Virus record (IMG/VR): IMGVR_UViG_3300033178_000167
Coordinates: 1-29,012 of that record
Length of the DNA stretch: 29,012 nt
Direction: 5' to 3' (one strand)
Source: a virus
The translations under genes were made by a program, and so were the position numbers. The notes under the pieces were generated by a model that saw only the letters and a list, made by a program, of their open reading frames with translations, was not told the origin of the DNA and did no database searches. Below are positions 2,316 through 9,324 of this stretch, one piece after another. The number at the start of each line of letters is the position of its first letter. Positions within the stretch are counted from its first letter, which is position 1.

Positions 2316-3089
2316 TTATTTATAAATTTCTTCAAAAACAAGATCATGGACTATTTCAGCAGATAAGGGGTCTTCATATAGATTTAATGATTTTTGGTGC
2401 CCCTTGATTACGATATAAGAACGCCAACACCTTTTTTCCGGATCCATTTTTTTGATATATGTGGTTCCTGTAAATCCAAATAGGCCGTTTCCCCTTTTGG
2501 AAAGCCCATATTTTTTCCTGGCATCTTCGGATCGGGTTTTACCCTTATTACTAATACTTAATTTTTTGCGTGTGCTTTTTGAAGGAGATACCCCATAAAA
2601 TGGATTATTTTCTCCTTTTTTAGCTTCACTCATCTTTTTACAGGTTTCTTTAGATAATTTTCTACCCATAAGTGATTCACTTATCTTTTTACGGGTTTCT
2701 GTTGAGTGAAATTCCCCATACATCCCATGACTTTCGCCACTATTTTTTAAACTAATTTTTTGTTTAGTTTCTGGAGAATGTTTCCCATTTGCCCCTCCAC
2801 TTTGAAAGTTATATCCTTTAGAATGGTTTAAACAATCATAATAAGTAATATAGGCTACTTCAAGCTCATCCAACGTTTTTTTATCTGTGGCATAATTTAA
2901 AACAATAAATTTAAAATTAGATTCACCATATTTATTAAAAGCATTCTGTAAATGAAAGTTTGCATGCCTTCTATTTTTTAAATTATAAAAATGATGATAT
3001 TTCCTAAGGCAGGGGTTTGAAGTTGTCAACCCAATATAAATCTTACCGTTCACCAGATTTTCTATTTTATAGATATATCCATATACCAT
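2316..3089 (-). CDS. Free-standing GIY-YIG homing endonuclease 1 (GIY-YIG + NUMOD3-like repeats + AP2-like C-terminus)
   Basis: GYIYKIENLVNGKIYIGLT, HFYNL, HANFHLQNAFNKYG, ELE, GYN motifs. Five HS.ET.KK.S...G repeats. C-terminal GFTG...WRSYI...LNLYEDPLSA. True start MVYGY at 3089 with an AGGAG SD; the track extension to 3182 is the RNA leader. Confidence 0.9.
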   Translation of the reverse strand: MVYGYIYKIENLVNGKIYIGLTTSNPCLRKYHHFYNLKNRRHANFHLQNAFNKYGESNFKFIVLNYATDKKTLDELEVAYITYYDCLNHSKGYNFQSGGANGKHSPETKQKISLKNSGESHGMYGEFHSTETRKKISESLMGRKLSKETCKKMSEAKKGENNPFYGVSPSKSTRKKLSISNKGKTRSEDARKKYGLSKRGNGLFGFTGTTYIKKMDPEKRCWRSYIVIKGHQKSLNLYEDPLSAEIVHDLVFEEIYK

Positions 3090-3184
3090 ATTTTTTAACT
3101 CCTTTAGATTCACGCCCTTAACTCCTACTTTTACGCCTTTGTGATAGGCGTGGTGAGGAGTGGAGTTAAGAATACTCCTCACAC
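3090..3184 (-). ncRNA. Structured 5' leader, copy 1 (alternative-pseudoknot translational switch)
   Basis: P1 3182-3174/3161-3153. Loop CUUAACUCC is complementary to 3125-3117 and, over 8 nt, to the SD region 3102-3095. P2 3151-3146/3138-3133, with alternative partner 3116-3111. Covaries with the 9033-9126 copy. Confidence 0.75.
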
Positions 3185-3207
3185 AAGATAATATATGAAC
3201 TTTAAAG

Positions 3208-3220
3208 TATATAAATCCTT
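3208..3220 (-). promoter_or_regulatory. Archaeal TATA/BRE promoter of the GIY-YIG 1 cassette
   Basis: AAGGA-TTTATATA about 23 nt upstream of the leader 5' end. Confidence 0.6.
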
Positions 3221-5001: not shown

Positions 5002-5817
5002 CTACCCCCTTGCTAATGATTCCCCAAACCATCCAAGTACATATTTAGAAAAAATATTAACCCACCACTTACGCTTAAAATTAGTCTTAGCGTGACAAGA
5101 TAGACAGAGAGTAATCAAATTCAATGGAGATGAGTTTTCTTTATTATAATCAATATGATGAACTACTAACCCCCATTTAGCCCCACATAATTGACACTGA
5201 TCCTTATCTCTCTTTTTAATCCGATCTTTTAATTTATCATTAAATTCAAGTGGATAAACCTCGTCCCCTATCCCTTTGTAATAATAAGGACGTTCCTTTT
5301 CAATAGCACATTTTGTACTACAATAAATCATTTCACTTTCTATAAATCTATGAGCTAATCTCTTTTTTCCAAATCTAATCTTTTCAGAAAGTATATTGTA
5401 ATTTTTAGAGTTTACAACATATTTTCTATTCTTTTTAATATTCTTACCGCAATTGTGACATTTTGTTACAAATTTATAATCATAACAATCAGGACATAAT
5501 GGAACAAAATTTTTATAATTAAACTGTTTTCCACATTTTTTACATGTCTGTTTTCGTAGTTCCGTTTCCCTACATAATTTAGAGCAATATACATTTTTAG
5601 CGTTTATATATTTCTCATGAATATAAAAAGGCTTGCCACACTTCTTACACGTTTTAAGAATATGGTCATCCTGCCCTTGCTTATAACAGTCATAAGAACA
5701 ATATTCCTTTTTCCATTCATCTCTTTTAAGTAGACTTTTACCAGGGTTGAATAACTGTTTACATGATGGACATTCAATTTTATTTCCATCTCTGGCTAAG
5801 ATTTTTTTAGTTTCCAT
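5002..5817 (-). CDS. HNH endonuclease with multiple N-terminal Cys4 Zn fingers
   Basis: RDKDQCQLCG...VVHHIDYNKENSSPLNLITLCLSCHAK is a canonical HNH core; at least 4 CxxC...YCS..C repeats. The frame stays open upstream to about 5928 and encodes one more finger (see findings). Confidence 0.85.
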   Translation of the reverse strand: METKKILARDGNKIECPSCKQLFNPGKSLLKRDEWKKEYCSYDCYKQGQDDHILKTCKKCGKPFYIHEKYINAKNVYCSKLCRETELRKQTCKKCGKQFNYKNFVPLCPDCYDYKFVTKCHNCGKNIKKNRKYVVNSKNYNILSEKIRFGKKRLAHRFIESEMIYCSTKCAIEKERPYYYKGIGDEVYPLEFNDKLKDRIKKRDKDQCQLCGAKWGLVVHHIDYNKENSSPLNLITLCLSCHAKTNFKRKWWVNIFSKYVLGWFGESLARG

Positions 5818-7698: not shown

Positions 7699-8263
7699 CC
7701 GTGGTTTTACATAACTCTATAATACTATCAACCCCCAAAACATCTATAATCCTCTTAGAATACTCCAACCCAATCCCAGGAATACAACTAACCATAGCCT
7801 CTAAAACATCCCCATCACTAACAGCCAACCTCCTAACCTTATCTAAATGTTTAAGTGAACCATCACTTTTCTCCATCAATGCCTTTGACAAGGTGAAAAA
7901 ATCCCTATTAGAATCAACATTAAACACTGGGATTTTATACCGTGCCGATATACTCGCACATGCCCCTAAAAACTGTTTCCGAGTGAAAGAAGTGTGTTTC
8001 ATAACCTCTTCTTCATCAAAACGTCCAACAATAATTAAGTAAGGGTGTTGGTAATTTTCAATCATATTCTGCAACTGAACCCATAATCTCCCCATAACGG
8101 AAGATATAAAATCTTCTACTGTTTTCCTTTCACAGCAAACGCTGTTAGTGGGGTAAACCAAATCTCCAACAGGCAACATTGTAACCTCCCCTGTTGAAAA
8201 AGTTTTAAGAAATAATTCTTTAATATGAGAGGGTTCTCTAGAATCTAAGAACACATTACTCAT
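7622..8263 (-). CDS. ERCC4/XPF-family structure-specific nuclease with (HhH)2
   Basis: DSRE, VGDL, ERKT..DF..S...GRL..QL motifs; IPGIG and VDGIG HhH motifs. Confidence 0.9.
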   Translation of the reverse strand: MSNVFLDSREPSHIKELFLKTFSTGEVTMLPVGDLVYPTNSVCCERKTVEDFISSVMGRLWVQLQNMIENYQHPYLIIVGRFDEEEVMKHTSFTRKQFLGACASISARYKIPVFNVDSNRDFFTLSKALMEKSDGSLKHLDKVRRLAVSDGDVLEAMVSCIPGIGLEYSKRIIDVLGVDSIIELCKTTVEDLMSVDGIGERKANNIKEYYFER

Positions 8264-9032
8264 ATAATGCCCCCATAACTAAATCATGAACTATCTCAGC
8301 ACTTAATGGATCATTGAAATACCCCAAATGTTTATTACGGCCATTATAGTGAATATGAGATCGCCATGGTATGTTTTCGGGATTAAGATCCTTCCTAAAG
8401 TGAGCACCAGTAAAACCAAATAACCCCTCTCCTCGTCGAGTTATACTCATCTTTTTGATGATGTCGATGGGACGTTTTTTACCATAATACGGATGTTTTT
8501 CACCAGAAAGATTGGGACGTTTTTTACCTTTTTTGGCTTTGCTAATTTTATTACGAGCGGCTTCACTTAATTTTTTGCCATAAATTGGAGCCAGTGGTCC
8601 CCTTTTCCCATACATATGGTTATTTTTACCAGAATGGGCCTTGCTCATGTTCTTACGAGCTTTTAGGGATGCCTTTTTACCTTTTCGGGCTTTGCTAATT
8701 TTCTTACATGTTTCTTCTGAATGTTTCCCATTAGCTCCCCCTCTTCGAATGTTATATCCATTTTTATCATTCAAACAATCATAGGAATTAATATAATCCT
8801 CTTCTAATTTATCAAGAACCCTTTTAGAAGTAGCGTATTTTAGAACAGTGAATTTAAAATTAGATTTGCCATACTTATTAAAAGCATTTTGCAAGTGTGA
8901 ATTGTTATGCTTATTATTTTTTAATTCACATAAATGGTTTGATTTGCGTTTATATGGGTCTTGGGTTGTTTGACCAATATACACTTTACCATTTAGGGTG
9001 TTCACTATTTTGTAGATATATCCATATACCAT
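8256..9032 (-). CDS. Free-standing GIY-YIG homing endonuclease 2 (GIY-YIG + NUMOD3-like + AP2-like)
   Basis: GYIYKIVNTLNGKVYIGQT, HNNSHLQNAFNKYG, GYN; same architecture as 2316..3089. True start MVYGY at 9032 with an AGGAG SD. Confidence 0.9.
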   Translation of the reverse strand: MVYGYIYKIVNTLNGKVYIGQTTQDPYKRKSNHLCELKNNKHNNSHLQNAFNKYGKSNFKFTVLKYATSKRVLDKLEEDYINSYDCLNDKNGYNIRRGGANGKHSEETCKKISKARKGKKASLKARKNMSKAHSGKNNHMYGKRGPLAPIYGKKLSEAARNKISKAKKGKKRPNLSGEKHPYYGKKRPIDIIKKMSITRRGEGLFGFTGAHFRKDLNPENIPWRSHIHYNGRNKHLGYFNDPLSAEIVHDLVMGALYE

Positions 9033-9126
9033 ACTACCTGACTCCTTAAATTTAACTCCCTTTGACTCTGATTGCACCCCATGATTGGAGTTAGGGAAGA
9101 GCGGAGTCAAAGAACACTCCTCCCTA
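9033..9126 (-). ncRNA. Structured 5' leader, copy 2 (alternative-pseudoknot translational switch)
   Basis: P1 9126-9116/9102-9092. Loop CUUUGACUCC pairs with 9068-9060 or with the SD region 9045-9039. P2 9091-9086/9081-9076, with alternative partner 9059-9053. Confidence 0.75.
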
Positions 9127-9145
9127 GTTAATATATTGTGTGAAC

Positions 9146-9154
9146 TTATATACA
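9146..9154 (-). promoter_or_regulatory. TATA box of the GIY-YIG 2 cassette
   Basis: TGTATATAA about 20 nt before the leader; the AAGTTCA..ATATATTA spacer is shared with copy 1. Confidence 0.55.
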
Positions 9155-9165
9155 TACTTTTCCCC

Positions 9166-9324
9166 TCATATTTCCACCTTGAATATTGTTCTTTGGAATA
9201 GCTTTTTACATCGTACGCATAAGCCCACTACAATCATCTCAAAACAATCATCATCAGCCACTGTTATTGGATCATCGGTTATGAGTTCCTGGTATTGCCC
9301 ACAATATGAGCAATGATCATACAT
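9166..9324 (-). CDS. Zn-ribbon microprotein (52 aa)
   Basis: MYDHCSYCGQ...GLCVRCKK, two CxxC motifs; GGGGTGA SD. Confidence 0.6.
   Translation of the reverse strand: MYDHCSYCGQYQELITDDPITVADDDCFEMIVVGLCVRCKKLFQRTIFKVEI

Follow-up and report, generated by a model that had tools for sequence, protein, structure and literature searches.

What is the function of the non-coding leader that precedes two homing endonuclease genes in a putative archaeal virus, and could it control their translation? The stretch of DNA analysed here, hereafter the window, is a 29-kb IMG/VR viral record (29,012 nt) with its genes on the minus strand. Its similarity to Methanobacterium virus Drs3 is mosaic, with short DNA patches 85-95% identical, an ERCC4 nuclease 53% identical and a primase about 44% identical, and one endonuclease homologue is annotated as deriving from a Methanobacteriaceae MAG. 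From this similarity and this homologue, we infer that the host virus is archaeal and related to Drs3. Because the relation is mosaic, a simple insertion map against Drs3 was not obtainable.

Two free-standing GIY-YIG/NUMOD3 endonuclease genes are found in the window (2316-3089 and 8256-9032), each with a non-coding stretch of about 95 nt on its 5′ side. Their proteins are 52-57% identical and both start with MVYGYIY; more than 40 homologues begin at the methionine of the second one. As in other free-standing enzymes of this family, an N-terminal GIY-YIG domain is combined with NUMOD3 repeats, the genes lie between other ORFs, and the Rfam group I intron models had no match in the whole window. 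At 8256-8263 (ATGAGTAA), the endonuclease stop codon and the ATG of the ERCC4/HhH nuclease gene that follows it overlap, so that the endonuclease cassette adjoins its neighbour without spacer. A third nuclease gene with an HNH domain (5002-5817, minus strand, 271 aa) has no leader of this family, and no tRNA or tmRNA was detected in the window.

According to the original prediction, the minus strand of 9126-9033 (copy 2) is a second, diverged copy of the leader at 3182-3090 (copy 1). This was borne out: all the motifs quoted for it lie on the minus strand at the positions given below, and the 7-nt linker, the AUCA start of the P2 loop and the 9 nt from GGAG to AUG are kept. The features of the two copies are as follows.

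9146-9154, minus strand: candidate archaeal TATA box (TGTATATAA), immediately preceded by an A-rich, BRE-like stretch; box present in 17/17 tabulated leaders.
9129-9136, minus strand: conserved ATATATTA block just 5′ of P1, near-invariant in 16/17 leaders.
9116-9126, minus strand: P1 5′ strand UAGGGAGGAGU, with a conserved 9-bp core at 9124-9116; six of nine pairs changed on both sides.
9103-9115, minus strand: loop L1 GUUCUUUGACUCC, putative anti-SD-like effector, complementary to the arm and to the SD flank (alignment, shuffles).
9092-9102, minus strand: P1 3′ strand GCUCUUCCCUA, whose final two bases overlap X (folding, alignment).
9086-9093, minus strand: strand X UAACUCCA, the 5′ strand common to P2 and P2′ (alignments).
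9091-9086, minus strand: P2 5′ strand ACUCCA, as originally quoted.
9076-9085, minus strand: P2 loop AUCA (9085-9082), then X′ UGGGGU (9081-9076) as 3′ strand of the local P2 hairpin.
9060-9075, minus strand: 7-nt linker (9075-9069) and arm GAGUCAAAG (9068-9060), which matches L1 over 9 Watson-Crick bp.
9053-9059, minus strand: X″ GGAGUUA, 3′ strand of P2′, the long-range helix; it adjoins the arm without spacer and pairs with UAACUCC at 9093-9087 (alignment).
9033-9052, minus strand: spacer (9052-9046), SD and flank GGAGUCA (9045-9039), complementary to L1 (alignment), and 6-nt spacer (9038-9033).
9032-9030, minus strand: AUG of copy 2, 9 nt after GGAG.
8256-9032, minus strand: GIY-YIG/NUMOD3 homing endonuclease ORF, 258 aa, starting MVYGYIY (Pfam PF01541, PF07460).
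3087-3215, minus strand: copy 1 module, type A (homology, folding, covariance model).
3215-3208 and 3196-3189, minus strand: copy 1 TATA box TTTATATA and ATATATTA block.
3182-3174 with 3161-3153, minus strand: copy 1 P1, with L1 at 3173-3162.
3152-3146, 3138-3133, 3125-3117 and 3116-3111, minus strand: copy 1 X, X′, arm and X″.
3102-3095 and 3089-3087, minus strand: copy 1 SD and AUG.

In copy 1 (3182-3087), the counterparts of the copy 2 motifs are GUGAGGAGU/ACUCCUCAC, UUAACUCC, GGAGUUAAG, CACGCC/GGCGUG and GGAGUUAA. P1 is far more stable than in shuffled sequences (z = -4.3 in copy 1 and z = -3.8 in copy 2; 0/200 shuffles did as well), and the minimum free energy folds leave the SD outside strong helices. 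The 3′ half of each leader is laid out as two tandem units, [X′-linker-arm] and [X″-spacer-SD], and is an old tandem duplication.

These features suggest a mechanism in which a bistable leader sequesters the SD and throttles endonuclease translation, as part of a portable archaeal promoter-leader-SD module; we consider this explanation fairly probable. The module would drive free-standing homing endonuclease genes in Drs3-related viruses. The stable hairpin P1 would present a 12-13-nt loop L1, ending in ACUCC and acting as an anti-SD, to two diverged downstream units that each hold one partner for X and one for L1. Fold 1 would use unit 1, combining the local helix P2 (X:X′) with an H-type pseudoknot L1:arm and leaving the SD free (ON); fold 2 would use unit 2, combining the long-range helix P2′ (X:X″) with the pseudoknot L1:SD and hiding the ribosome-binding site (OFF). 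As the arm and X″ abut, and as the P1 3′ strand joins L1 to X without spacers, a full L1:arm helix and a full P2′ should be mutually exclusive. This steric exclusion, predicted by a geometric argument, would let the choice between P2 and P2′ set the partner of L1. The ON fold should form first during transcription, since the arm is made before the SD. In this way, translation of the potentially harmful nuclease would probably be limited or timed. The switching, any trigger for it (kinetics, temperature, a protein or a ligand) and the effect on translation are predictions of this model.

Homologous leaders were collected by a protein-guided search of viral and metagenome contigs and of a large protein collection, followed by contig look-ups, and a covariance model (CM), R1, was then run on all the fetched DNA. 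This gave 18 distinct leaders from metagenomic and viral contigs, which fall into three sequence types, with a distant fourth type in addition. Type A comprises 12 leaders (copy 1, L307, L166, L169, L083, L230, L308, L171, L273, L003, L164 and L316), type B five (copy 2, L161, L162, L163 and L082) and type C one (L168). The endonuclease start codon is found at the leader end in all 18 cases, and the CM detected two copies only in the window. A loose loop pattern run on viral contigs gave mostly random hits among the matches listed, from which the CM retained L223, L230 and L273, L223 being the same place as L003; a type B pattern gave no match on the viral contigs. The 18 leaders represent few independent lineages, with an effective sequence number of about 1.7.

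Pairing was evaluated in a 17-sequence alignment, A4, for P1, L1:arm, L1:SD and P2′, and in a second one, A5, for P2; both are CM-fitted and thus biased towards the fitted structures. A MAFFT alignment (A3) was set aside because it misaligned P2 and the type C helix. P1 is strongly supported by the sequence comparison: in A4, 98.7% of the cells of its nine pairs are paired, six pairs show compensatory changes, and seven different P1 sequences occur. The L1:arm helix (10 pairs) is 93% paired and the L1:SD helix (8 pairs) 100% paired across the 17 sequences, each with one pair changed on both sides (AU in 12, GC in 5). L1 retains 8-10 bp of complementarity to the arm and 7-9 bp to the SD flank in every sequence. 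The same L1 column, 29, covaries with the arm (29/79) and with the SD flank (29/105), reading A or G in L1 and U or C in both partners. In addition, an extra U in the L1 loop has its counterpart in an extra A in the arm, and L316 keeps an L1:arm pair through a change from U-A to U·G. When the 3′ partner was slid by one to three columns, pairing fell from 96-99% to 39-61%.

The original prediction also held that one loop and its two partners covary. Both partners do follow L1, but at a single position between the two window copies; across the family, this amounts to one column and one compensated indel, with no further columns. The covarying column is probably one evolutionary event common to the five type B sequences. 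Support specific to L1:SD is accordingly thin, with one covarying column, and the GGAG:CUCC pairing is partly forced because the SD is needed in any case. Both L1:arm and L1:SD pair a hairpin loop with a downstream strand and show covariation, as H-type pseudoknots do. The loops of the pseudoknot formed by P1 and L1:arm measure 3 nt, 0 nt and the hairpin plus 7 nt, and those of the pseudoknot formed by P1 and L1:SD measure 4 nt, 0 nt and the hairpin plus 7-8 nt. These lengths look compatible with H-type pseudoknots and would give one topology common to both folds.

The two helices built on X covary more clearly. P2′ (A4, 6 pairs) is 98.9% paired with two pairs changed on both sides, and P2 (A5, 6 pairs) is 85% paired with three compensatory pairs, a figure that underestimates P2 because type B is misplaced in A5. 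Single-sequence folding forms the P2 hairpin with 4-8 bp in 17/17 leaders, and with 9 bp in L316; in L171 and L273, only 4 bp of P2 are left, without compensation. In type A, X reads CACGCCU, X′ AGGCGU and X″ GGGCGUG; in type B, X is UAACUCCA, with UGGGGU as X′ and GGAGUUA as X″; in type C, the three strands are CACUACUCC, GAGUAGUG and GGAGUAGU. X is thus wholly different among the three types, and X′ and X″ are complementary to it in each, in agreement with the covariation that had been proposed for the alternative partner of P2. As the registers in which X′ and X″ pair with X differ in part, neither is a simple copy of the other, and L162 carries a compensatory change from A-U to U-A at a position used by P2′ only. 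The linkers of unit 1 and unit 2 are alike across types and unlike each other, a pattern suggesting that the duplication predates the split into types and that the three strands then changed together. Two exclusive helices, P2 and P2′, thus share strand X, each with covariation of its own, as in a bistable switch, and this strand with two partners provides the strongest sequence argument for two folds.

Against this background, a static structure would be an unlikely explanation. It would make P1, L1:arm and P2 the only functional elements, for instance stabilising the mRNA 5′ end or keeping the SD open, with the resemblance of unit 2 reduced to a leftover of the duplication and to the need for an SD. 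It has in its favour that L1:arm is the longest complementarity (9 Watson-Crick bp, 11-12 with G·U) and has a small stability advantage over L1:SD in the majority of type A leaders, and that L1:SD has one covarying column only. It is at odds with the conservation of the X helices, which is higher for P2′, a part of the other fold, than for P2 (98.9% versus 85%), and with the compensatory change specific to P2′ in L162. Nor does it account for an X″ that follows X in three unrelated types despite the diverged unit linkers, or for the UUA/UCA flank of the SD, kept in 18/18 leaders while the next positions vary. The check proposed at the outset, on homologues of the leaders of MVYGYIY-type genes, was run here and found both pairing sets in all 18 leaders, which supports the view that two conformations are under selection. 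At the level of sequence, the alignments thus establish the family, its helices and the retention of both pairing sets.

The dual complementarity had been thought hard to explain by chance, and we evaluated this by shuffling the downstream sequence with its dinucleotide content preserved and searching for two non-overlapping complements at least as long as those observed. For L1, such pairs appeared in 0/2000 shuffles of copy 1, 0/2000 of L003 and 7/2000 of copy 2; for X, the values were 3/2000 (copy 1), 16/2000 (copy 2) and 2/2000 (type C). Dual complementarity is thus rare in shuffles, as claimed, but a duplication yields it free; given such an origin, part of it is inherited and not selected, and the real evidence lies in its retention through divergence. 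Crude helix-energy sums, which omit pseudoknot loop penalties, gave -15.7 to -23.7 kcal/mol for fold 1 and -17.0 to -19.9 kcal/mol for fold 2. By these sums, the two folds lie within about 3.5 kcal/mol of each other in 16/17 leaders and within 2 kcal/mol in 9/17.

Each of the 17 tabulated leaders has, about 26-29 nt upstream of the base of P1, a TTTA(T/A)ATA-like box preceded by A-rich bases. Under the general rules for archaeal promoters, this fixed spacing would put the transcription start at the foot of P1. The leader therefore probably begins at its own archaeal TATA promoter. The ATATATTA block may serve either as a proximal promoter element or as a second TATA box; it is a candidate promoter at the right distance for transcripts lacking the inhibitory 5′ arm. 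Promoter choice could then regulate the gene: transcripts from the proximal box would start in L1, lack the anti-SD and be translated, those from the distal TATA box or from read-through would carry the full leader and be repressed. The same arrangement is documented for I-TevI, I-TevII, I-TevIII, segB and mobE (PMC2988022), and ATATATTA is near-invariant and lies about 22-25 nt 5′ of the middle of L1. We nevertheless regard this possibility as improbable as the principal explanation, given that no purine-rich, BRE-like stretch precedes ATATATTA, as one does the distal box, and that the decoy arm and the P2/P2′ duplication would go unexplained. It is in any case compatible with the bistable leader and does not exclude it.

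The leader could also be read as an N-terminal extension of the endonuclease. At 9033-9155 and at the other type B loci, gene callers run the ORF through the leader, with products of 299, 352, 261 and 263 aa that start with MYISS or a similar sequence. All five type B leaders are open in frame over at least 44 codons 5′ of the AUG, and four of them have an upstream ATG. Conversely, in-frame stops occur 1-26 codons upstream in 8/11 type A leaders, homologous bases of copy 1 and L003 fall in different reading frames, and the type B leader L082 has no upstream ATG. The variable columns of type B are spread over codon positions 1, 2 and 3 as 8, 7 and 13, and 16 of its 20 variable codons are non-synonymous. 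A strong SD also stands 9 nt before the conserved methionine at which the homologues begin. On these sequence comparisons the leader is non-coding, and we give a coding function an almost negligible probability; the extended type B calls are probably an annotation artefact, although a minor extended isoform of type B may exist. Two other candidates were rejected: a short upstream ORF starting from a GUG in X″, whose frame differs between copy 1 and L003, and a C/D-box or K-turn motif in the unit 1 linker, where GUGAUGA was seen by eye in L166 only and is not conserved.

Leader type is not coupled to the endonuclease body. P0004 and P0008, two closely similar proteins, have leaders of type C and type A, respectively, and the L161 leader is one base from copy 2, yet its endonuclease is only 48% identical in protein. 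This mismatch indicates that the leader behaves as a portable module. At L230:9796-10372, a type A leader even stands 5′ of an HNH_3/AP2 endonuclease and not of a GIY-YIG gene; its GGAG-to-AUG spacing is only 7 nt, and the viral record is complete, with direct terminal repeats.

The region around copy 2 adds an observation on exchange. A patch of about 280 bp (9007-9286, minus strand, against L161:300-585) is about 99% identical, with one mismatch in the leader, and its flanks are 60-85% identical. It runs from the 3′ end of the small ORF upstream, through promoter and leader, into about the first 25 nt of the endonuclease ORF, and resembles a recent gene-conversion tract with the leader at its centre. 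The apparently recent exchange of exactly this block could point to a DNA-level element, either a recombination or homing sequence or a protein operator, in place of an RNA structure, and I-TevI is known to autorepress at the DNA level. We judge this very improbable, as the changes observed are compensatory and not sequence-conserving. Moreover, U·G occurs at two pairs in 11/17 sequences, on the sense strand; such pairs would be A·C mismatches on the antisense strand or in DNA, which favours selection on RNA pairing over selection on a site in duplex DNA. An RNA function is also compatible with recombination of the module.

The distant fourth type, D, has three representatives (L084, L310 and L311), each with a 9-bp hairpin, a 12-13-nt loop and a second hairpin directly after. 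At L084:117-215 and in the L310 and L311 copies, which lie upstream of a MYGYIYKIQN-type gene, the order is an extra 5′ hairpin, the 9-bp hairpin with a U-rich loop, and an abutting 9-bp hairpin. By eye, the 5′ strand of the second hairpin has a further downstream complement, GGAAAAC. The first 9-bp hairpin has a 3′ strand that is complementary to the SD region, AAGGAAGAG. Being near-identical, the three copies add no covariation. A weak CM match (26.5 bits) at L273:1612-1705 marks a two-hairpin leader with repeated GGAG motifs, 5′ of an 81-aa ORF without Pfam family, in a complete genome that also has a type A leader.

Beyond these contigs, the leader had no blastn match in cultured phages, whose nearest endonucleases are below 40% identity, and Drs3 gave a best CM match of 18 bits (E 0.04) and has no leader. 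A protein-pattern scan of species-representative prokaryote genomes found no relative; 19 DNA-pattern matches in such genomes fell in unrelated bacteria and were judged to be chance from the organisms alone. Rfam 15 gave no match at the gathering score in the whole window, and permissive scans of both leaders returned chance-level scores only (E 0.97 to 8), the best for preQ1-II being 14.5 bits (E 7.9) against a gathering threshold of 47 bits.

The leader is probably an undescribed translational control element. More tentatively, it may possibly be a portable riboregulator that responds to an effector (temperature, a protein or a small molecule), built on a platform from tandem duplication, in which X and L1 would toggle between the decoy unit and the SD unit, and which the unrelated GIY-YIG and HNH-AP2 endonuclease families would share to time homing. 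To our knowledge, archaea have few known cis-regulatory RNAs, and their viruses hardly any; if the riboregulator reading is true, the leader would be the first class of cis-regulatory RNA to be described in archaeal viruses. The family is compact and sequence-defined, with clear covariation, a simple, testable design and types A, B and C as natural arm-swap variants. Its duplicated decoy-and-SD layout would offer a template for synthetic two-state translational regulators in archaea that use the SD.

In the preQ1-II and SAM-II platforms, a strand of the hairpin loop or pseudoknot pairs with the SD, and the leader follows a similar anti-SD and anti-anti-SD logic; unlike them, it matches no Rfam model and a conserved ligand pocket is not evident. 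The leader of E. coli rpsO (S15) alternates between two hairpins and a pseudoknot, which the S15 protein traps. Like the rpsO leader, the one studied here would be in equilibrium between alternative folds, with a pseudoknot involving the translation initiation region, but its two proposed folds would both be pseudoknots and derive from an internal duplication. The closest functional parallel lies in T4-type endonuclease genes, which are held back by RNA structures that sequester the ribosome-binding site (PMC2988022). In the T-even examples (I-TevI, I-TevII, I-TevIII, segB and mobE of Aeh1), a cis RNA structure blocks access to a good SD and so restricts translation, with promoter-like elements nearby, as proposed for the leader; there, the structure is a simple local hairpin containing the SD, relieved by a late promoter inside the hairpin (PMC2988022). 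In the leader, the SD is not within a stable local stem and would instead pair with the distant L1. The proposed long-range pairing of the SD with a hairpin loop (a pseudoknot), the decoy arm, the duplicated X partner, the two folds of one topology and the archaeal host virus all set it apart from the T-even hairpins, with which it has no sequence similarity. If the mechanism proposed here is correct, it would show that selfish endonucleases of archaeal viruses are checked at translation, as those of T4 are, through a different architecture.
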